NCBI GenBank assembly: GCA_028278105.1
Contig: JANQEX010000077.1
Span: forward strand, 2,030 to 66,029
Length of the DNA stretch: 64,000 bases
Direction of reading: 5' to 3'
Origin: Alphaproteobacteria bacterium
GTDB lineage: Bacteria > Pseudomonadota > Alphaproteobacteria > UBA9219 > RGZA01
The stretch's first letter is position 1. The number at the start of each line of letters is the position of its first letter. A program made the position numbers and the translations under genes. The notes under the pieces were generated by a model. The model did no database searches. It had not been told where the DNA came from and saw only the letters and a list, made by a program, of their open reading frames with translations. Of the stretch, positions 11,555 to 61,894 are shown piece by piece.

Positions 11555-12802
11555 TCATTCGCCCATATGGGCCGGTTTGTCCGGTATATCCATCATCGGT
11601 GGCGCGTCGGGGCAGGCCTGGGGCGGCAGGACAAGCTCTTCCGGCGGCATCGAATGGACGACGCGGAACAGGTCGAATGGCCCGCCGCGGTCTTCGGGCT
11701 TTTTGCTGGACAAAAGATTCAGGCGGTGAATCACCACCCCGTCGCGCCGCACATGACCCCCGTCGAAAAGGCTGTCGCGCAAGGGGCGCGCGCGCATCTG
11801 CGCCAGGACCGCGCCGGCCGCCGTCCGGCCCTGGGCCGCGTCCACCGCCTGGAGATAATGCCGGACGGCCGAATAGACCGATGCGTGAATGGCGGTCGGC
11901 ATCATGCCGCGGTTGCGCCCGGCAAACCGTTTGGCGAAGGCGCGGGTATGGTCGTTCTGGTCCCAGTAGAAAGAGGCCAGGGTGTAAAAAGGCGGCATGG
12001 GAACACGCTTCAAGTCATACAGGTCGCTGAATGGAAGACTGCCGAAAGCCAGCGGGGGCGTCCGCCCGTCGGGCGGCGGCGGCCAGCGCCGGAGCAGGTG
12101 CAGGATTTCGGGCCGCTCGAAAGAAAGCAGAACAATGTCGGCTTCCGTTTTCCGTATCTGCGCGGCAATGGCGCGAAGCCCCCCCATGCGGCGCCTTAAA
12201 TAAGCTTCGCCAACAATCTCGGCGCCGAATGTCCGCAGCATCCCCTTGGCCGACGCGGCAAGCCAAGCCGCATGGGGATTCTCGCCCCCCAGAATGAACC
12301 AGCGCCGCTTGCCTTCGGCCACAAGCGCGCGGATCAGGTTTTCCGTCATGGTGTCGCGGCCATAGAGCCAGTGAAGGGCGGTGCCTTCACAGGACACCGA
12401 CGCGGCTTCCGGTCGCCGCGGTGTGCTGGTCAGGAGAATCTTTCCTTCCCGGTGGAACAAACCCCGTAGCCGGGCGGCGATGGCGGCGTTGGGAACATCC
12501 GCCACCATGTCGATATTCTGCCGCCGGATCCAGTCCCGGCTGATATGCCGCGCGAGGCCGCCGCGGCTCTGGTAGTCGGCGGTGACGATGGTCACGCGCA
12601 GGCCGGTGGCGGCGCGGACATCCTCGGCGGCCATGGTCGCGGCCTCAATGGAGCCGCGCCCGGCCGCGCCCGCCATGCTGCCCGAAAGGTCGGTCAGCAC
12701 GCCGATGCGGATCACGCCGTCTTCCGCTAGGGCCGGGGAGGCAAGGGCGCCAGACGCAAACAAAGCGCCGCAGAAGAACAAAAGGACCAAAAGCCGTCGC
12801 AT
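11555..12802 (-). CDS. ABC transporter periplasmic substrate-binding protein (type I PBP, branched-chain amino acid/LivK-like family)
   Basis: 415-aa ORF with an N-terminal signal peptide (MRRLLVLLFFCGALFASGALASPALA) and a type I periplasmic-binding-protein fold signature (IRIGVLTDLSGSMAG...). Confidence 0.65.
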   Translation of the reverse strand: MRRLLVLLFFCGALFASGALASPALAEDGVIRIGVLTDLSGSMAGAAGRGSIEAATMAAEDVRAATGLRVTIVTADYQSRGGLARHISRDWIRRQNIDMVADVPNAAIAARLRGLFHREGKILLTSTPRRPEAASVSCEGTALHWLYGRDTMTENLIRALVAEGKRRWFILGGENPHAAWLAASAKGMLRTFGAEIVGEAYLRRRMGGLRAIAAQIRKTEADIVLLSFERPEILHLLRRWPPPPDGRTPPLAFGSLPFSDLYDLKRVPMPPFYTLASFYWDQNDHTRAFAKRFAGRNRGMMPTAIHASVYSAVRHYLQAVDAAQGRTAAGAVLAQMRARPLRDSLFDGGHVRRDGVVIHRLNLLSSKKPEDRGGPFDLFRVVHSMPPEELVLPPQACPDAPPMMDIPDKPAHMGE

Positions 12803-12928
12803 CCCGGCAAGCTAGGAACAGTTTTTGGCGAATTGGAGGCCAAAAGCAGACAGAAGAACAAGGATGTTCTTGAAATGTTGGCGGTCAGACCCTAAACCAG
12901 CAGGGTTCCTGTAACCTGGTTCCCGGAC

Positions 12929-14611
12929 ATGGCTTCCTACCAGTATATTTACGTGATGAAGGGCCTGAACAAGGCCTGGCCCGGCGGCAAGACGGTGCTG
13001 AGCGACATCTGGCTGTCCTTCCTGCCGGGGGCGAAGATCGGCGTTCTGGGCGTAAACGGCGCGGGCAAGTCCACGCTGATGCGCATCATGGCGGGGATCG
13101 ACACCGACTTTACCGGAGAGGCCTGGGCGGCCGAAGGAGCCACGGTCGGCTATCTGCCACAGGAACCGCGGCTTGATCCCGCCCGGAATGTTGAGCAGAA
13201 CATCATGCAGGCGCTTGGCGCGAGCCTGGATCTGGTCAGGCGGTTCGAGGAAGTCTCGGCGAAGCTCGGCGAAGTCACCGATGAAAATGAAATGACCGCG
13301 CTCATCGAAGAGCAGGCGGACTTGCAGGAAAAGATCGACGCCGCCGGCGCGTGGGATCTCTCGCGCACGGTCGGAATCGCCATGGACGCGCTGCGCTGCC
13401 CGCCGGGCGACGCCGATGTTGCGAAGCTTTCGGGCGGGGAGCGCCGCCGCGTGGCGCTGGCCCGCCTGTTGCTGCAAAAGCCGGACCTGCTGCTGCTGGA
13501 CGAGCCCACCAACCATCTGGACGCCGACAGCGTGGCGTGGCTCCAGCGCTTTTTGCGCGAATACGCGGGCACGGTGGTGATGGTCACCCATGACCGCTAT
13601 TTTCTTGACGAGGTCACCGGCTGGATTCTTGAGCTGGACCGCGGATCGGGCATCCCCTATCAGGGCAATTATTCGGCCTGGCTGGAGCAAAAACAGAAAA
13701 GGCTGGAGCAGGAGCAACGCGAGGAAGGCGCGCGGCAAAGGGTTCTCGCGCGCGAGCTGGAGTGGATCCGCCAAAGCCCCCGCGCCCGGCAGGCCAAAAG
13801 CAAGGCGCGCATCACGGCCTATGAAAATCTGGTCCGGCAAAGCCAGGAAAAAGCACCCGACACGGCGGCCATCGCCATTCCCGTTCCGCCCAAGCTTGGC
13901 GAGAACGTGATCGAGGCGCGGAAAATTTCCAAGGCTTATGGCGACCGTCTGCTGATCGATGATCTGTCTTTTCGCCTGCCGCCGGGCGGCATCGTGGGCG
14001 TGATCGGTCCGAACGGCGCGGGAAAAACAACCCTGTTCCGCATGATTACGGGACAGGAAAAGCCGGATGCCGGCGTCTTCAAGGTCGGGGAATCGGTGGC
14101 GCTGGGCTATGTGGACCAGAGCCGCGACAGCCTGGACGGCAAAAAAACGGTGTGGGAAGAAATCTCCGGCGGGCACGATGTGCTGGACCTCGGCCCGCGC
14201 AGGCAGGTGCCAAGCCGCGCCTATGTGTCCAGCTTCAATTTCAAGGGGCCGGACCAGCAGAAGAAAGTCGGCGTGCTGTCGGGCGGCGAGCGCAACCGCG
14301 TGCATCTGGCCCGGATGCTGAAATCCGGCGCGAATGTCATCCTGCTGGACGAACCGACGAACGACCTTGACGTCGACACGCTTCGCGTGCTGGAAGAGGC
14401 CTTGAGCGATTTCGCCGGCTGCGCCGTCATCATCAGCCACGACCGCTGGTTTCTTGACCGCATCGCCACGCATATCCTCAGCTTCGAGGGCGACAGCCAT
14501 GTGGAATGGTTCGAAGGCAATTATCAGGATTACGAAGCCGACCGCCGCCGGCGTTTGGGCGCCGAGGCCGACCAGCCCCACCGCATCAAGTACAAGCCGC
14601 TGACGCGGTGA
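12929..14611 (+). CDS. ettA: Energy-dependent translational throttle protein EttA (ABC-F ATPase)
   Basis: 560-aa ORF with two ABC ATPase domains (Walker [10 protein letters not shown] and GPNGAGKTT; LSGGE signatures) and the EttA-specific N-terminus [21 protein letters not shown]. Confidence 0.9.
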
Positions 14612-54395: not shown

Positions 54396-54518
54396 CTAGG
54401 GCCAATAGACAATTACCAACATGAACATTCCCGCGAAAGCGGGAATCCCATTTATCTTCAAAAACAAACGGGATTCCGCAGGCGCGGCTGCTTCACAACC
54501 TTACCCGGAATGTTCATT
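54396..54518. mobile_element. MITE-A, degenerate right-truncated copy
   Basis: CTAGGGCCAATAGACAATTACCAACATGAACATTCCCGCGAAAGCGGGAATCCCATTTATCTTC...GGAATGTTCATTAATGG lacks the right TIR. Confidence 0.65.
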
Positions 54519-55920
54519 AATGGAAGTCATTGCCTCCGCCGCGATAGGGACCCAGGCGCCGCTCATGCAGTCTTTGCTTGATGGCCAGCGCCTCGGATGC
54601 CGAAGGGTAAAGCGATGAATCCTCCGGCACGCTTTTGTCATGCACGGCATAGGCTTTGCTTAAACTCCGGTTCAGGCCTTGCGCCTCGTCCACAATCGCC
54701 CAGGCCCGCGCATAAGTTGTGCAGCTAAGCGCCAGAAGAAGCACGGCCGCGGCCCATCCCGCTCGCGCGGCGAATCCGCCTTTCAGCCGGGTCAAAAACG
54801 GCAAGGCCCTTTGAAGATCACAACAAGCCGCAAGCAGTCCGAAATACATGATATTCGCAACAATGGTGGTGGGCGACACGCCGGCATGGGCAACGCCATA
54901 TCCGGGGAGCGCGCCGCGTCCATAGCCGACGGCGCCGGCGACCAGAACCGCATAGGACACGGCCAGCACAAAAAAACCATTGCGTGTTTCCGCCAGTCTT
55001 TCGCGTTTTCGCAGAACATGAATGAAATACGCTGCGGCAAGGGCGCAGACGACGCCGCCGCAAACGGCGTTGATCGCGTATTCGCTGGCATGGCCGAACA
55101 TGCCGATGTGATACATCCAGACAAGGTTGCCAAGCGGCTTGCCCAGAAATACGAGCACGTAAAGCGCAAGATCAATGACTCCCGGATGTTCCTGCGCCGT
55201 AAACGGCAGTCCCGGAAAATACAGCGCCGCCGCCGCCGTGGCATTGGCGATCCAGAAGGCTCTTTCCATCCATGTCGTTTTTCGCAGAAACAGCACCAGC
55301 AGCAACACCGGCAAGAAGGCCAGGATGCCGCTGGCAAAGCTGTAAGTGGCGAACCATAGAAGAATGGCCGCCAAAATCCGCGACGGCCAGCGCCGGGCGG
55401 CTTGCGCCAGCAATACATAGGCGCAGAGCACATAGGCGCAGCACATCACGAGTTCGATCATGAAGCTCCACCACATGTTCACATGCTGCGCGGGCGAAAA
55501 GCCAAGAATGGCCGCCGCGCCCAGTATCGCCGTCCGTTCCCAGCCTCCAACATTGGCCGGGAGGACGCGATGGAGGAAAAAAAGAACGGCCGCCACCTGC
55601 CCGGTCTGGAACAGGTTGAGCAGAACGAATTCCCAGCGCAGGTTCCATCCCGACAGCAGGGCGGGACCCAGCAGCAAAAGCCGTGGCGCGGCGATGCGAT
55701 GCTCGTTATGCGGCTGGAAGATGCGGGAAAGCGTCAGCGCGCCGTCATGGGCGGAAGCGACCAGCGAGGAAGTGTCCCCCGCATGATCCCAGAAGGGATG
55801 GACCAGCGCGCCCGACTGGGAAAAGGCCACATAGTAAAGCGCGGGCAGAAGGACGAGCAGCCACGCTGTCCAAGCAGGCAGTGATATTTTGTCAGCGAAG
55901 AAAGGCTTTGTCATCGGCAT
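54517..55920 (-). CDS. Polytopic membrane protein (possible GT-C glycosyltransferase / polymerase)
   Basis: 467-aa ORF with at least 10 hydrophobic helices, located in the glycan cluster. No soluble-domain motifs. Confidence 0.45.
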   Translation of the reverse strand: MPMTKPFFADKISLPAWTAWLLVLLPALYYVAFSQSGALVHPFWDHAGDTSSLVASAHDGALTLSRIFQPHNEHRIAAPRLLLLGPALLSGWNLRWEFVLLNLFQTGQVAAVLFFLHRVLPANVGGWERTAILGAAAILGFSPAQHVNMWWSFMIELVMCCAYVLCAYVLLAQAARRWPSRILAAILLWFATYSFASGILAFLPVLLLVLFLRKTTWMERAFWIANATAAAALYFPGLPFTAQEHPGVIDLALYVLVFLGKPLGNLVWMYHIGMFGHASEYAINAVCGGVVCALAAAYFIHVLRKRERLAETRNGFFVLAVSYAVLVAGAVGYGRGALPGYGVAHAGVSPTTIVANIMYFGLLAACCDLQRALPFLTRLKGGFAARAGWAAAVLLLALSCTTYARAWAIVDEAQGLNRSLSKAYAVHDKSVPEDSSLYPSASEALAIKQRLHERRLGPYRGGGNDFH

Positions 55921-56007: not shown

Positions 56008-56214
56008 CTAGCGCCATTCGCATTCCTTGAGGCACCGGCCGAAGTTCTTCTTCACGCCGCTGAACTTGGAGAGACGGCGTTTGACGAAGGACCAGAAACT
56101 TTCAATGCCGTTGATGCGCGCGCCGTGCAGGGCGAAGGCCTTTCTTTTGTTGATGCGCGAATGCTTGTCAAAGTCCACATCCATCAACCCGTCATAGCCG
56201 CTCCACACAAACAA
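56008..56214 (-). pseudogene. IS1595-family (ISXO2-like) transposase C-terminal fragment
   Basis: The 68-aa ORF ...INGIESFWSFVKRRLSKFSGVKKNFGRCLKECEWR matches the conserved C-terminal DDE-domain end of IS1595-family transposases. No N-terminal region or IS ends were found. It lies in an AT-rich patch. Confidence 0.7.
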
Positions 56215-56215
56215 A

Positions 56216-56295
56216 AACGGCAGGCCGGAGCCTGCCGTCTCATTTTGTGAACAACGTCTTGTTAACGGTAAGACGCCGTTTTCTAATCAGCTGTT
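56216..56295 (-). ncRNA. Predicted tracrRNA of the type II-C system
   Basis: The minus strand at 56272-56292 is a perfect 21-nt complement of the crRNA repeat segment GACGCCGUUUUCUAAUCAGCU, extendable with a bulge. Downstream on the minus strand lie the hairpin AACAAGACGTTGTT and the terminator GACGGCAGGCTCCGGCCTGCCGT-TTTTTGTTT. The upstream promoter is TTGACG-N18-TAAAAT (56300-56329). Confidence 0.7.
56217..56238 (-). terminator. Rho-independent terminator hairpin (tracrRNA 3' end)
   Basis: ACGGCAGGC-CGGA-GCCTGCCGT stem-loop followed on the minus strand by UUUUUGUUU. Also U-rich on the plus side. Confidence 0.7.
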
Positions 56296-56299
56296 GCGA

Positions 56300-56329
56300 A
56301 TTTTAGCCGGCCGGGCTTATCGTCGTCAA
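56300..56329 (-). promoter_or_regulatory. Predicted sigma70 promoter of tracrRNA (minus strand -35 TTGACG, 18-bp spacer, -10 TAAAAT)
   Basis: Reverse complement of 56324-56329 is TTGACG and of 56300-56305 is TAAAAT. The hexamers are the same as in the repeat-embedded promoters of the array. Confidence 0.5.
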
Positions 56330-56353: not shown

Positions 56354-59300
56354 ATGAAAACCCGTCTTGCGCTTGATCTAGGCTCAACATCACTCGGATG
56401 GTGCCTTCTGGAAATGAACAATGAGGCGCCCACAGGCATAAAAGCCATGGGAGTACGCATATTTCCCGACGGACGCGACAATCAGTCCAAGAAGCCCCTG
56501 GCTGTTGCCAGGCGCTTGGCGCGCGGCATGCGCCGCAATCATGACCGGCGAAAATGGCGGCGGCAATTGCTGATGTCTTATCTCGTGGAGAAAGGACTTA
56601 TGCCTTCCACGAAAAGCGAACAAAAGGAACTGGAAAAGCTTGACCCATACGAACTTAGGGCCAGGGCAATCAAGGAAAAACTGTCGCCCTTTCAAATTGG
56701 CCGGGCCTTGTTTCATATAAATCAGCGCCGCGGATTCAAAAGCAATCGAAAAACAGATAAAAAGGAAAATGACGCAGGCGCAATGAAGAACGCCATAAGG
56801 GATTTGGATGGCAAGCTAATGTCTTCCGGCTACCGGACACTTGGCGCCTATTTGAACAATCTCCATCAAGAGAACAAGCCCGTTCGCGTTCGCCGCGCTG
56901 TGGTCGGGAAAGAGACTTCGTATAACTTCTATCCTGAAAGAAAAATGTACGAAGAAGAAGTTGACCGGATTCTGAAAGAGCAGGAAAAGCACCACCCAAT
57001 CCTTACCGAAGAGATTTGCAGGCGAATCAAGGAAATCATTTTTTTCCAGCGCCCCCTGAAACCAGCGAAAGTTGGGAATTGCGTCTTTGAAAATAGAGAG
57101 CCCAGAGCCCGGCTCGCCCTGCCAATTGTGCAAAAATTCCGCATTCTGCAAGAAGTAAACAACCTGGAGATTGAAGATTTTGGTTGTGGCGAAAGGCAAT
57201 TAACGCAGGAGGACCGGAAAAAGATCATCGAGCGCCTCCGCGTCAACAGGCGGATAACCTTTAAGGGTTTACGGAAATTTCTCAAGCTTGGCAGCGATCT
57301 CCGGTTCAATCTTGAAAGTGACAAAAGAGATGAACTGGCTGGTGATGTAACCTCGTGCCTGTTATCCGACGACAGGGCTTTTGGTTCACGGTGGCAAAAA
57401 CTGACGGACGATGAACGGGAAAAAATTGTTGAATTGCTTTTTGAGGAATCTCATGAGGAGAAACTAATCCATGCGCTTGCAGGGCAATTTGGGGCCACGC
57501 CCGAACAGGCCCTTTATGTTTCCGGCCTTGATCTTCCCGACGGCTATGGCCGTGTGAGCAAAAAAGCCATTCAGAAAATGCTTCCTCATCTGGAGGCGGG
57601 TTGCCGTTATGCGGAAGCCGCAAAAAGGGCCGGTTATCATCATTCTGACTTTCGAACAGGAGAGGTTTTCGACGAGCTACCCTATTACGGGCAGGTCTTG
57701 CAAAGCCAGGTGATCGGCGGAAGTTACAGCGAAGATGATAAGGCGAGTCCCGAACTCTATTACGGCAGAATTAACAACCCTTCGGTGCATATTGCGCTCA
57801 ACCAGTTGCGCAAGCTTGTTAACTCCATCATCGCCGCATACGGCAAGCCGGATGAGTTCGTCATCGAACTGGCGCGGGATTTAAAAGAACCTGCCGGCAA
57901 GATTCTTGAGGAACAGTCAAAAAACACAAAAGACAACAAACGCATCAGCGCCGAACTGGAAAAACTTGGCGTGAGAAACAATTATCGCAACCGCATGCTT
58001 TATAAATTGTGGGAAGATTTGGCCAAACAGCCGGAACGGCGTTGTTGCCCCTTCAGTGGCACGCAAATTTCCGCCGCGGACATTTTTTCAGGAAAATTCG
58101 AGGAAGAGCATCTTCTGCCCTTCTCCCGCAGCTTTAACGATGGAAGGGCCAACAAGGTTCTCTCCCGTGTCGACTGGAACCGGAAGAAAGGCAACCGCTC
58201 TCCTTTCGACGCTTTTGGTCACGAGCCTTTCTGGCCGGATATTATGGCCCGTGTACAAAATCTGCCTGCAAACAAGCAATGGCGGTTTAAAAAAGACGCA
58301 TGGACGCGGATGGAAGGCGAAGACGGCGTCATTGCCCGCATGCTGAACGACACACGCTACATGTCGCGTCTTGCCAAAGCCTATCTATCCGCTGTCTACG
58401 ATAACGAGAAAGGCAAAAGCAGTGTTTGGGCGTCAAACGGACAGCTTACGGCGCTGCTTCGCAAAAAGCTGGGCCTGAACGCTCTCCTTGGCGAGGACGA
58501 TTCCAAGGACAGGGCCGATCATCGTCATCATGCGGTTGACGCTTTTGTTGTCGGCCTTGGTGACCGGGGCTTATTGAGAAAGGTTTCGGATGCCGCCCGA
58601 CGCATGGAAACCACGGAGGGGCTTTGGGAAAAACGCCAGAAACTCGTGGAAGGTCTGGAAGAACCTTTTCCCGAATTCAGGGAAAAACTGGTCAATCATC
58701 TGGAGACCCTGGTTGTTTCCTTCAAACCGGATCACGGCAATGCACAAAAAGCCGTCCATGCAGCCCCGCCCTACACCATTGCCCCGCTGCACGATCAAAC
58801 GGCTTGCGGATTTATCGGCAAGGGAGAAGGAAATAACACTGTACTTGTCGCAACCCGCAGGCCCGTTGAAAGTCTTGAAAAGATCAAGCATATAGAGGAA
58901 ATAGCCGACGCCGTTATCCGCAATGAACTGCTTCAGGCCGTAAAAGGCCTTAAAGAAAAAAGCACGGAGTGGAAACAGGCCCTCGCGGCCTTCACGGCAC
59001 GGACAGGCACGAGAAGAGTTCGTGTCCACATTAAGCGGAGCAAGGACACCCTTATTGGCATTTCCTCCGGCCATCAGCAAAACAATCCCTACAAATACTA
59101 TGCAACCGGCGGAAATTACTGCGCGGAAATTTATTGTCCTGACAAGGGCAGGCTTGCCGGCAAATGGCAATGCGAGGTGATTTCGAACTATGACGCGCAC
59201 CGGAAGGACTTTGTGCCCGAATGGAAAAAACAGAATCCTGCCGCAAAACGGGTCATGCGCCTGCAAATAGACGACATGGTTGCCTACGAGAAGGATGGGG

Positions 59301-59500
59301 AAACCGTCATCGCGCGCGTGAAAAAAATTGCAAAAGGCCATGGCGGCCGAATCTACTTCCGCAAGCACACCGTTGCGAAGGAAGAGGCCGACAAACTTAG
59401 TTGGTGTGCTTTTGTTTCACGCATGCAAGCGGCAAATTTGCGAAAAATTTCCGTTGATATTATTGGCCGCGTGCGTGACCCAAGGGCCAGAGTCGCATAG
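56354..59500 (+). CDS. cas9: CRISPR-associated endonuclease Cas9, type II-C (1048 aa)
   Basis: RuvC-I MKTRLALDLGSTSLGWCLLE at the N-terminus (RBS AGGGGGA upstream). HNH motif EEEHLLPFSRSFNDGRANKVL...NRKKGNRSPFDAF. Arginine-rich bridge helix (RRLARGMRRNHDRRKWRR). Compact size and no csn2/cas4 nearby. The track ORF start at 56294 is an upstream in-frame extension. Confidence 0.9.
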   Translation: MKTRLALDLGSTSLGWCLLEMNNEAPTGIKAMGVRIFPDGRDNQSKKPLAVARRLARGMRRNHDRRKWRRQLLMSYLVEKGLMPSTKSEQKELEKLDPYELRARAIKEKLSPFQIGRALFHINQRRGFKSNRKTDKKENDAGAMKNAIRDLDGKLMSSGYRTLGAYLNNLHQENKPVRVRRAVVGKETSYNFYPERKMYEEEVDRILKEQEKHHPILTEEICRRIKEIIFFQRPLKPAKVGNCVFENREPRARLALPIVQKFRILQEVNNLEIEDFGCGERQLTQEDRKKIIERLRVNRRITFKGLRKFLKLGSDLRFNLESDKRDELAGDVTSCLLSDDRAFGSRWQKLTDDEREKIVELLFEESHEEKLIHALAGQFGATPEQALYVSGLDLPDGYGRVSKKAIQKMLPHLEAGCRYAEAAKRAGYHHSDFRTGEVFDELPYYGQVLQSQVIGGSYSEDDKASPELYYGRINNPSVHIALNQLRKLVNSIIAAYGKPDEFVIELARDLKEPAGKILEEQSKNTKDNKRISAELEKLGVRNNYRNRMLYKLWEDLAKQPERRCCPFSGTQISAADIFSGKFEEEHLLPFSRSFNDGRANKVLSRVDWNRKKGNRSPFDAFGHEPFWPDIMARVQNLPANKQWRFKKDAWTRMEGEDGVIARMLNDTRYMSRLAKAYLSAVYDNEKGKSSVWASNGQLTALLRKKLGLNALLGEDDSKDRADHRHHAVDAFVVGLGDRGLLRKVSDAARRMETTEGLWEKRQKLVEGLEEPFPEFREKLVNHLETLVVSFKPDHGNAQKAVHAAPPYTIAPLHDQTACGFIGKGEGNNTVLVATRRPVESLEKIKHIEEIADAVIRNELLQAVKGLKEKSTEWKQALAAFTARTGTRRVRVHIKRSKDTLIGISSGHQQNNPYKYYATGGNYCAEIYCPDKGRLAGKWQCEVISNYDAHRKDFVPEWKKQNPAAKRVMRLQIDDMVAYEKDGETVIARVKKIAKGHGGRIYFRKHTVAKEEADKLSWCAFVSRMQAANLRKISVDIIGRVRDPRARVA

Positions 59501-59511
59501 GAACAGGGATA

Positions 59512-60420
59512 ATGCTTGCCCGCATCATAGAAATAACAACGGATAACAGGCACCTTTATGTTGAACGCGGCTTTATGTGCATCAGCGCGCATGGAGAAGA
59601 GCAGGCCAGAATAGCGCTTGATGACATAGGCGCTGTTATCTCCTGCGCGCATGGCCTGACCTTCAGCAACAATCTTCTTGTCCAACTGGCGGCGCGGAAT
59701 ACCCCGTTTATCGCATGTGGGTCGAATTTTGTTCCTGTTGCGTGCCTTTGGTCCCTGGAGGGAAACTACAACCAGTCCTCCCGCATGGATGCCCAGATCG
59801 AGGCGACAAAACCAAAAAGCAAGCAATTGTGGAAACAAATCGTTCAGGTGAAGATTACCCAGCAGGCCGCCGTTCTGGAAGCTGTTGGCGCAAACCCGGC
59901 GCCGGTCAAGGCCCTTGTCAGGTTTGTGCGTTCGGGTGATCCTGAAAACATTGAAGCGCAGGCGGCGCGGCGTTATTGGCAGGCCTTGTTCGGAACGGAC
60001 TTTCGCAGGGACCAGACCGCGGGCGGGATAAACGCACTCCTTAACTACGGATATATGATTATCCGTTCATGCGTCGCCAGAGCCATTATGGGCGCGGGCC
60101 TGCACCCTTCGCTTGGCATACATCATTCCAATGCCGGCAACCCCATGCGCCTGGTCGATGACCTGATGGAACCCTACCGCCCTTTTGTTGATTTCGCCGC
60201 GTGGCATTTGAAACAGCGAAAACAGGAAGAAGTGACGGCGGAAACCAAACGGGAGCTTGTCGCCGTTCTGGATAAGGAAATTGCAACGGAAAAAGGCATG
60301 ACAACCCTTCGAAACAATATTCAGGATGCGGCAACAGGCCTCGCTTTCATTTTCATGGATAAACAAAAAAGCCTTGAACTTCCCAGCCCCCAACCCCCGC
60401 TCTGGCTCGAAACATCATGA
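59512..60420 (+). CDS. cas1: CRISPR-associated endonuclease Cas1 (type II)
   Basis: 302-aa ORF directly after cas9. Type II Cas1 features include the N-terminus MLARIIEITTDNRHLYVERG, the NYGYMIIRSCVARAIMGAGLHPSLGIHH region and a conserved E/H/E catalytic arrangement. Confidence 0.85.
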   Translation: MLARIIEITTDNRHLYVERGFMCISAHGEEQARIALDDIGAVISCAHGLTFSNNLLVQLAARNTPFIACGSNFVPVACLWSLEGNYNQSSRMDAQIEATKPKSKQLWKQIVQVKITQQAAVLEAVGANPAPVKALVRFVRSGDPENIEAQAARRYWQALFGTDFRRDQTAGGINALLNYGYMIIRSCVARAIMGAGLHPSLGIHHSNAGNPMRLVDDLMEPYRPFVDFAAWHLKQRKQEEVTAETKRELVAVLDKEIATEKGMTTLRNNIQDAATGLAFIFMDKQKSLELPSPQPPLWLETS

Positions 60421-60755
60421 GCCAGGTCCCTTACAGCAGGTTCCGACTCATGTGGATGATGGTGATGTTCGACCTCCCGGTCATGACGTCCGCCGAAAGA
60501 AAGATGGCAACGAAATTTCGTAATTTCCTTCTCGATAAAGGATTTGAAATGTCGCAGTTTTCAGTGTATTTTCGTTTTTGTGGGGACAGAAGCAACACAA
60601 CGCCCTATGTGAACAGCATCAAAAAGAATGCGCCAAAAGGCGGGCGCGTCAGTATTCTTTTTTTCACGGATAAACAGTTTTCCGAAATCATCAATATCCA
60701 GAACAGGGCCGTGCAACCACCAACAAAAAATCCGGATCAACTGGTGTTGATATGA
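60417..60755 (+). CDS. cas2: CRISPR-associated endoribonuclease Cas2
   Basis: 112-aa ORF overlapping the cas1 stop by 4 nt, with the Cas2 N-terminal beta strand MWMMVMFDLPV and conserved FSVYFRF. Confidence 0.8.
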   Translation: MSQVPYSRFRLMWMMVMFDLPVMTSAERKMATKFRNFLLDKGFEMSQFSVYFRFCGDRSNTTPYVNSIKKNAPKGGRVSILFFTDKQFSEIINIQNRAVQPPTKNPDQLVLI

Positions 60756-60825
60756 CTTTTTTCCCCGAATTTTCAGCAAAAAAAGAAAAGATAAGCCCTC
60801 TGTTTCAAGGGCTTATCTCAAAGGC

Positions 60826-61785
60826 ATTATAGCTGATTAGAAAACGGCGTCAAACCGCAACGACGGCAGTATCCATCATTTTTATGACACGATTATAGCT
60901 GATTAGAAAACGGCGTCAAACCGCAACAGACCCCTGCTCGCCATCGCCAAACAACGCATTATAGCTGATTAGAAAACGGCGTCAAACCGCAACTTACGGT
61001 GGTCGGCGGCGTAGCTACGGCTCATTATAGCTGATTAGAAAACGGCGTCAAACCGCAACGCGCTGTAGGTGCGGACGATTACGTAATCTATTATAGCTGA
61101 TTAGAAAACGGCGTCAAACCGCAACAGCGCACTGCCCAATGTGACTGACCATTAAATTATAGCTGATTAGAAAACGGCGTCAAACCGCAACTGCTCACCG
61201 CGTCCGAAATAGACTGGAACGATTATAGCTGATTAGAAAACGGCGTCAAACCGCAACTCGCGGCGTGGGCGGCTGCAATATGCGATTATTATAGCTGATT
61301 AGAAAACGGCGTCAAACCGCAACTTGAGCTCGGCCTGGCTGTTCAGGAGGCTCATTATAGCTGATTAGAAAACGGCGTCAAACCGCAACGACAAAACCGT
61401 TCGGTATTTATCCGTTTTGATTATAGCTGATTAGAAAACGGCGTCAAACCGCAACCCAAACAACGCACTCGACTGCCAATACTCAATTATAGCTGATTAG
61501 AAAACGGCGTCAAACCGCAACAGCTGCGCTGCCGCCTGCGCTGTTGTCTGCATTATAGCTGATTAGAAAACGGCGTCAAACCGCAACTGGCGATGCGCGC
61601 GCAAGCGGCATAGAGAAATTATAGCTGATTAGAAAACGGCGTCAAACCGCAACAGTCAAGGTTCGGAGGGACGGAGGTTCGTAATTATAGCTGATTAGAA
61701 AACGGCGTCAAACCGCAACATACCGATAGCAGCGGCGCGTAGCGCGTCCATTATAGCTGATTAGAAAACGGCGTCAAACCGCAAC
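60826..61785 (-). CRISPR. CRISPR array of 15 identical 36-bp repeats and 14 spacers of 30 bp
   Basis: Plus-strand repeat ATTATAGCTGATTAGAAAACGGCGTCAAACCGCAAC. Canonical orientation is the reverse complement GTTGCGGTTTGACGCCGTTTTCTAATCAGCTATAAT, which resembles the Neisseria type II-C repeat ends GTTG...ACAAT and contains TTGACG-N16-TATAAT. The period is exactly 66 bp. The minus strand was assigned from the repeat-internal promoter orientation. Confidence 0.95.
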
Positions 61786-61817: not shown

Positions 61818-61894
61818 TGGCGCGCCCGAAGAGATTCGAACTCCTAGCCTTCTGATCCGTAGTCAGATGCTCTATCCAGTTGAGCTACGGGCGC
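61818..61894 (-). tRNA. tRNA-Arg (anticodon ACG)
   Basis: Minus strand GCGCCCGTAGCTCAACTGGATAGAGCATCTGACTACGGATCAGAAGGCTAGGAGTTCGAATCTCTTCGGGCGCGCCA has a 7-bp acceptor stem, D and T arms, anticodon loop CTACGGA and an encoded CCA. Confidence 0.85.

Follow-up and report, generated by a model that had tools for sequence, protein, structure and literature searches.

Candidate RpoD-type promoters within the repeats of an alphaproteobacterial type II-C CRISPR array

[quoted passage not shown] On the minus strand the repeat reads GTTGCGGTTTGACGCCGTTTTCTAATCAGCTATAAT (42% GC) and is laid out as GTTGCGGT-TTGACG-N16-TATAAT, such that a -35-like hexamer at positions 9–14 is followed, after a gap of 16 nt, by a -10-like hexamer that forms the final six bases of the repeat (positions 31–36).

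Results

A promoter-like pair in every repeat

When scored against the sigma70 consensus, all 15 repeats reach 11 of 12 bases, every one of them on the minus strand: The -10 TATAAT is the full consensus and the -35 TTGACG matches at 5/6. The plus strand of the array has no such site, and nothing else in the whole window, whichever strand is read, reaches 11/12. A preliminary description of this DNA had placed TTGACG-N16-TATAAT, aimed at the adjacent spacer, in each repeat, and the scan confirms this for all 15, with the coordinates correct and the motif occurring far above chance expectation.

The strength of this match must be read with the nature of the array in mind. Exact copies of the repeat were found in none of 100 shuffles, and the preliminary description was right that all 15 are identical; it had also taken this identity as a sign of selection on the promoter, but because repeats are normally identical in any active array, identity carries no weight on that point. 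Moreover, a single sequence has been multiplied by the CRISPR mechanism, and its 15 copies do not amount to 15 independent events.

A consensus closer to the probable host is that of Caulobacter RpoD, TTGaCgS / GCtANAWC (PMC8144410). Against this consensus, which belongs to another alphaproteobacterial order and may not be that of the host, repeat positions 9–15 (TTGACGC) fit the -35 block at 7/7 and positions 29–36 (GCTATAAT) fit the -10 block at 7/8, and the gap between the two blocks (13 nt) is inside the range used for the Caulobacter consensus. The combined pattern, TTGACGS-N10-14-GCTANAW, matches 15 times in the window, each time within a repeat, against a shuffle expectation of 0.

Because AGC precedes TATAAT, the window repeat has no TGn extended -10 of the type reported in the promoters of Neisseria meningitidis, Campylobacter jejuni and Clostridium cellulolyticum, and the -35 appears to take its place. 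The extended -10 is a trait of the individual promoters that have been described and not of the repeat-embedded mechanism as such.

Table 1. Features of the CRISPR-Cas locus in the window (crRNA, CRISPR RNA; tracrRNA, trans-activating crRNA; aa, amino acids).
Feature	Position	Strand	Details
cas9	56354..59500	plus	1048 aa, ATG start, N-terminus MKTRLALDLGSTSLGW; TIGR01865 E = 1.3e-193, full length
cas1	59512..60420	plus	type II (NMENI) class; TIGR03639 E = 3.9e-76
cas2	60417..60755	plus	TIGR01573 E = 1.2e-17
Predicted tracrRNA	56204..56295	minus	anti-repeat 56292-56261, conserved CCGTTAACAAG motif, terminator hairpin 56241-56214, U-run
Predicted tracrRNA promoter	56300..56329	minus	TTGACG-N18-TAAAAT, -35 hexamer identical to that of the repeats
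CRISPR array	60826..61785	minus (predicted crRNA sense, toward cas2)	15 identical 36-nt repeats, 14 spacers of 30 nt, 66-nt period
Representative repeat, first in the direction of transcription ('extra' repeat)	61750..61785	minus	-35 TTGACG 61777-61772, -10 TATAAT 61755-61750; layout repeated each 66 nt as far as 60826-60861
Last repeat, adjoining cas2 and leader	60826..60861	minus	any start from its promoter would meet the terminator hairpin at once
Intrinsic terminator for minus-strand transcripts	60778..60819	minus	13-bp hairpin 60819-60788 + U-run; between array and cas2, in the presumed acquisition leader
tRNA-Arg(ACG) gene	61818..61894	minus	co-oriented with the crRNAs; ends 32 nt upstream of the first repeat

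Conservation of the pair among related repeats

We drew on 80 related loci from reference genomes, plus three for the closest Cas9s. Of the 80, 63 contained an array, as did each of the three extra loci; every array lay downstream of cas2 in the same orientation. The comparison was made on 58 distinct repeats from loci with 37–67% Cas9 identity. Because these repeats are related by descent, the counts that follow are descriptive and are not probabilities.

Averaged over the 58 repeats, the best match to the sigma70 consensus scores 8.5/12 on the crRNA strand, whereas the antisense strand gives 5.3/12 and shuffled repeats give 5.8/12; 48% of the repeats score at least 9/12 versus 0.9% of shuffles; in mononucleotide shuffles of the same repeats, 10/12 was reached in 0.1% of trials and 11/12 never. 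The position of the match is nearly fixed, with the best -10 beginning at position 31 in 54 of 58. Column information is high at T31 (1.87 bits), A32 (1.70) and T36 (1.41) and falls to only 0.15–0.71 bits at positions 33–35, so that the conserved TA...T has the profile expected of a -10 element. TAnnnT forms the final six bases in 44 of the 58, GCTA is the best-conserved block of the repeat family, and about half of the related repeats have TGC before the -10, that is, an extended -10.

Across the family the upstream, -35-like block takes the form TnGAC at positions 9–13, with a spacing that is nearly always 16 nt: TTGAC[G/A/C] occurs in the nearest relatives (most loci with at least 45% Cas9 identity) and in a few more distant loci, and TGGACC, which matches at 4/6, occurs in a clade of Rhodobacterales and Sphingomonadales. 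Loci from Cloacimonadota (L010, L047 and L055) have a perfect TTGACA at the same repeat positions and have lost the 3' TAnnnT, which hints at a different promoter architecture.

Two relatives, L081 and L008, belong to the same Cas9 clade as the window and share its tracrRNA position, its leader-side terminator, TTGAC at positions 9–13 and a -10 at positions 31–36. The closest relative, L081 (Alphaproteobacteria metagenome-assembled genome [MAG] GCA_028708035.1; Cas9 67% identical), has a repeat that differs by one base, at position 33 (TAAAAT), the least constrained position of the -10. In L008 (gut Alphaproteobacteria MAG HGM16787, array 12443-13997; Cas9 46% identical), the repeat has TTGACA-N16-TATAAT plus a TG extended -10 and is thus closer to consensus than that of the window. 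As the L008 repeat is the fuller of the two, public data contain a more extreme member of the family than the window. Taken together, these repeats support a promoter-like pair that is common to the family, confined to one strand and anchored where the repeat has its 3' end.

Locus type, tracrRNA and the direction of transcription

The cas9, cas1 and cas2 genes are contiguous, with 70 nt between cas2 and the array, and neither csn2 (II-A) nor cas4 (II-B) is present at the locus, which assigns it to type II-C. No entry of the protein collection exceeds 67% identity to the Cas9, whose nearest relatives come from MAGs of uncultured Alphaproteobacteria, and the Pfam domains Cas9_a, HNH_4 and RuvC_III are found in identical and related Cas9 proteins.

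The tracrRNA is predicted from a region 60 nt upstream of cas9 that holds AGCTGATTAGAAAACGGCGTC, followed on the minus strand by TTACCGTTAAC, a hairpin and a T-run. Its 32-nt anti-repeat pairs with repeat positions 1–31, of which positions 11–31 make 21 perfect pairs; positions 9–10 form a UU/UU internal loop, and there is a 1-nt bulge near the 5' end. The predicted fold is stable (free energy, dG, -41 kcal/mol; z = -5.5). An Rfam search returned a tRNA as its sole match and matched no tracrRNA or CRISPR family. The element stands at the same place in every relative examined. In an alignment of 10 related loci, the TTG of the tracrRNA promoter -35 is invariant, as is the CCGTTAACAAG-like motif after the anti-repeat, the terminator stem shows compensatory changes in 8 of 10 pairs, and the U-run occurs on the minus strand only.

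A tracrRNA arranged in this way, anti-repeat 5' and terminator 3', could pair only with minus-strand transcripts of the array. Arrays of type II-C are, furthermore, documented as being transcribed opposite to the cas genes (PMC7038990; PMC12080349). From the complementarity and layout of the predicted tracrRNA, the orientation of the terminator described below and this literature, we take the crRNA sense to be the minus strand, toward cas2. The preliminary description had read the array in this direction, and both the tracrRNA and the minus-oriented terminator past the cas2-proximal repeat uphold it. The polarity of spacer acquisition is taken from the literature (PMC12080349), its only local support being a mutated distal repeat in L081.

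A separate observation concerns the bases adjoining the anti-repeat. The six bases on its 5' side (56293-56298, minus), CGCAAC, are the same as those with which the array repeat ends on the plus strand, so that the region resembles the end of one repeat joined to a truncated second one; it may be a vestige of the origin of the tracrRNA from an inverted repeat unit. GCAAC near the anti-repeat is also found in L002 and is missing from most other relatives.

A terminator on the leader side of the array

Between the array and cas2, a hairpin begins 7 nt past the cas2-proximal repeat (dG -20.1 kcal/mol, z = -5.1); the bases after it are TTTTCTTTTTTT on the minus strand, as against CTCAAAGG on the plus strand. 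Because the U-run is on the minus side only, the hairpin would terminate only those transcripts that exit the array in the direction of cas2. Beside the arrays of 59 related loci, a simple scan found a minus-oriented terminator in 20 and a plus-oriented one in 5. When 16 loci are aligned, the terminator lies 12–13 nt past the repeat and 4 of 9 pairs show compensatory changes, and the hairpin is conserved as AAGCCCnUG...CAnGGGCUU plus a U-run even though the Cas9s are only 38–67% identical. Since it is sited in the acquisition leader, this hairpin may also be a leader element for spacer integration.

The opposite flank of the array holds the tRNA-Arg gene, whose CCA end is followed by TTTTT and which is a possible source of read-through into the array. 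Read-through of this kind would yield an extraneous crRNA (ecrRNA) with the tRNA trailer as its 'guide'. Three devices that suppress extraneous crRNA have been described for II-C systems (PMC12080349), and none of the three is evident here: The extra repeat is unmutated, and no ecrRNA-suppressing hairpin or terminator was found between the tRNA-Arg gene and the first repeat, the fold of the trailer not being significant (z = +0.38). The distal repeat of the relative L081 is mutated, with GCAGC in place of GCAAC.

Discussion

Relation to known II-C promoters

The repeat promoter of Neisseria meningitidis is reportedly an extended -10, TGnTACAAT. The N. meningitidis system (Zhang et al. 2013, summarised in PMC5965381 and PMC12477760) resembles the one described here in several respects. 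Its cas9-cas1-cas2 genes are followed by the array, without csn2 or cas4; its 36-nt repeat (GTTGTAGCTCCCTTTCTCATTTCGCAGTGCTACAAT; PMC12477760), separated by 30-nt spacers, starts with GTTG and ends with GCTAnAAT; the -10 lies at the repeat's extreme 3' end; and, as is predicted for the window, transcription of the array runs toward the cas genes and acquisition leader, and crRNAs initiate from the repeat-embedded promoters at the 6th nt of each spacer (PMC12477760). The two differ in that positions 9–14 of the N. meningitidis repeat are TCCCTT, its promoter being described without a -35, whereas the window has TTGACG, a 5/6 -35 at 16-nt spacing; that the window has AGC in place of TGC before the -10 but a consensus TATAAT; and that the predicted tracrRNA of the window is upstream of cas9 and divergent from it.

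A second precedent is the 'minimal' II-C system of Campylobacter jejuni (Dugar et al. 2013, PMC3656092), which likewise has, in every repeat, a promoter at the 3' end. Differential RNA sequencing placed primary ends at position 5 of the spacers (PMC3656092), with RNase III and tracrRNA making only the 3' end. Unlike the window repeat, the C. jejuni repeat ends in GGTAAAAT, which resembles an extended -10, with no -35 described, and its host is AT-rich (30% GC, vs. 61% for the window). In Clostridium cellulolyticum, crRNAs carry 23–26 nt of spacer (PMC7038990), and reviews and later papers agree on the presence of repeat-embedded promoters in II-C systems (PMC5965381, PMC12080349, PMC10309648).

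Repeat-embedded promoters are, in short, the accepted II-C model, and the difference presented by the window is a modest one of architecture: a consensus -10, a 5/6 -35 and no TG. This small twist is common to the whole uncultured clade. In our literature search, whose coverage was incomplete, no account of an explicit -35 within a II-C repeat came to light. The preliminary description had called the window repeat a fuller version of the Neisseria promoter, and so it is with respect to its explicit -35 and its consensus -10; however, it lacks the extended -10, and the L008 repeat is fuller still.

A model of crRNA biogenesis

In the mechanism that we propose, the -35 TTGACG(C) at repeat positions 9–15 and the -10 (GC)TATAAT at the last eight positions would recruit RNA polymerase on the minus strand. 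Judging from the geometry of the -10 and from the C. jejuni and N. meningitidis data, transcription would start some 6–8 nt into the downstream 30-nt spacer and give a crRNA with a primary 5'-triphosphate end and a guide of about 23–25 nt. The repeat part of the transcript would then pair with the anti-repeat of the tracrRNA and be loaded into Cas9, and because the predicted crRNA:tracrRNA duplex is perfect over 21 bp, RNase III probably trims the 3' ends inside it. The crRNAs had been predicted, in the preliminary description, to be independent of RNase III: By analogy with the known systems, this may well apply to the 5' end, but it is unlikely to extend to the 3' end, given the same 21-bp duplex. 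Finally, the terminator 7 nt past the last repeat would stop transcripts that exit the array, those begun at the promoter of the last repeat among them, and would shield cas2 from antisense transcription; a last-repeat promoter firing into the hairpin would explain why the hairpin stands where it does.

Several points weigh against this model. The 16-nt spacing is one below the optimum of 17. The -10 is not universal in this Cas9 family, since 14 of the 58 repeats lack the 3' TAnnnT, and the related repeats are not phylogenetically independent, such that family statistics overstate the evidence. The bases of the -35 are part of the duplex bound by Cas9, where U9 and U10 fall in the internal loop and G11–C13 are paired, and conservation of the -35 could come from recognition by RNA or protein and not from transcription. 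Similarly, the conserved 3' GCTAnnnT abuts the acquisition leader and could be a signal for the Cas1-Cas2 integrase.

Alternative explanations

Of the alternatives, the one that best survives would accept the -10 as a working promoter and view the TTGACG as incidental, kept by the Cas9-bound repeat:anti-repeat duplex and adding little to transcription. Experimentally studied II-C repeats have been described with an (extended) -10 only (PMC3656092, PMC7038990), and two features of the repeats can be read in the same way: TnGAC at positions 9–13 is kept even in clades whose hexamer matches at only 4/6 (TGGACC), suggesting a constraint other than promoter function, and these positions fall in the duplex and internal-loop region facing the tracrRNA. 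We nonetheless think an incidental -35 unlikely. Positions 9–15 fit the alphaproteobacterial RpoD consensus at every base, and alphaproteobacterial promoters depend strongly on the -35. Moreover, the predicted tracrRNA promoter has the identical TTGACG, its TTG being invariant in 10 loci, and the 16-nt spacing is retained in nearly all related repeats.

[quoted passage not shown] The ends of repeats are integration determinants in other type II systems, the tRNA-Arg gene is co-oriented with the array and directly upstream of its first repeat, and 14 of the 58 related repeats lack TAnnnT. Yet a TA...T with a free middle matches what sigma70 reads and carries no obvious integrase signature; the motif is strand-specific and fixed in position; a conserved terminator stands immediately past the last repeat; the CCA end of the tRNA is itself followed by a run of five T; and repeat-embedded promoters have direct experimental precedent in at least three II-C systems. 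On this balance, we hold by-products of recognition to be very unlikely.

That the array is transcribed from the plus strand, co-directionally with cas9-cas1-cas2, which would make the minus-strand motif irrelevant, deserves almost no credence: Many CRISPR arrays are indeed co-directional with their cas operon, and this was the default of early prediction pipelines (PMC3737331), but the tracrRNA layout covaries in 10 loci and allows pairing with minus-strand array transcripts only, the hairpin that separates cas2 from the array is accompanied by a U-run on the minus strand only, the plus strand of the array holds no promoter-like site, and transcription against the direction of the cas genes is documented for II-C arrays (PMC7038990).

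It is also worth considering how far the repeat-embedded promoter model might be extended. Conceivably, the repeat of this II-C clade has evolved into a complete, host-adapted RpoD promoter in which the -35 replaced the extended -10, and, with a terminator 7–13 nt past the last repeat, each spacer would be an insulated, autonomous unit; the same bases would then be under triple selection by RNA polymerase, the Cas9/tracrRNA duplex and the integrase, and the leader hairpin would act as both terminator and acquisition leader. We regard this combination as distinctly improbable. A stronger form, in which a repeat-internal hairpin and U-tract end each unit and produce near-mature crRNAs without processing, is argued against by the insignificant fold of that hairpin: The repeat-internal hairpin plus T-run (GCGGT-TTGAC-GCCGT-TTTTCT) has a dG of -5.1 kcal/mol and z = -0.22, no better than shuffles, and we rejected it as a unit terminator.

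Implications

The accepted picture of II-C crRNA biogenesis is left unchanged by these results, which offer a clear but expected example of promoters shown experimentally in Neisseria and Campylobacter. They do extend the idea of the repeat-embedded promoter from AT-rich or moderate-GC pathogens to GC-rich Alphaproteobacteria, and they suggest that promoter architecture tracks the host RNA polymerase, a -35 plus -10 replacing the extended -10. The conserved terminator after the leader-proximal repeat suggests, in addition, a way to avoid antisense transcription of cas2. For the uncharacterised clade to which the 1048-aa Cas9 belongs, they assign by prediction a strand to the array, a guide length of ~24 nt and a tracrRNA, and these are what the design of single-guide RNAs needs.

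Spacers and neighbouring genes

Two spacers of the array (61456-61485 and 60928-60957) share an 11-nt overlap on the same strand (…GAGTGCGTTGTTTGG and GCGTTGTTTGGCGATGG…), from which it follows that both were acquired from one target, 19 nt apart. The cas2-proximal member of the pair reveals the 3' flank of the other protospacer, CGATGGCG, which provides a single data point on the protospacer adjacent motif. A BLAST search of the array against phages and plasmids for protospacers gave chance-level matches only (E = 0.3–0.9), and when IMG/VR was searched for exact copies of the 24-nt sequence across the two overlapping spacers, there was no match.

The open reading frames (ORFs) flanking the locus include an IS1595-like fragment and glycosyltransferases. 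A 467-aa ORF adjoining the CRISPR-Cas locus (54517-55920, minus) has no NCBIfam or Pfam match. Just past the tracrRNA terminator, a 68-aa ORF (56008-56214, minus) is similar to the C-terminus of an IS1595/ISXO2-like transposase, with a match to Pfam PF12762 (E = 3e-4) that falls under the gathering score. This transposase-like ORF, together with the tRNA gene at the opposite end, suggests a mobile or rearranged segment as the setting of the CRISPR-Cas locus.

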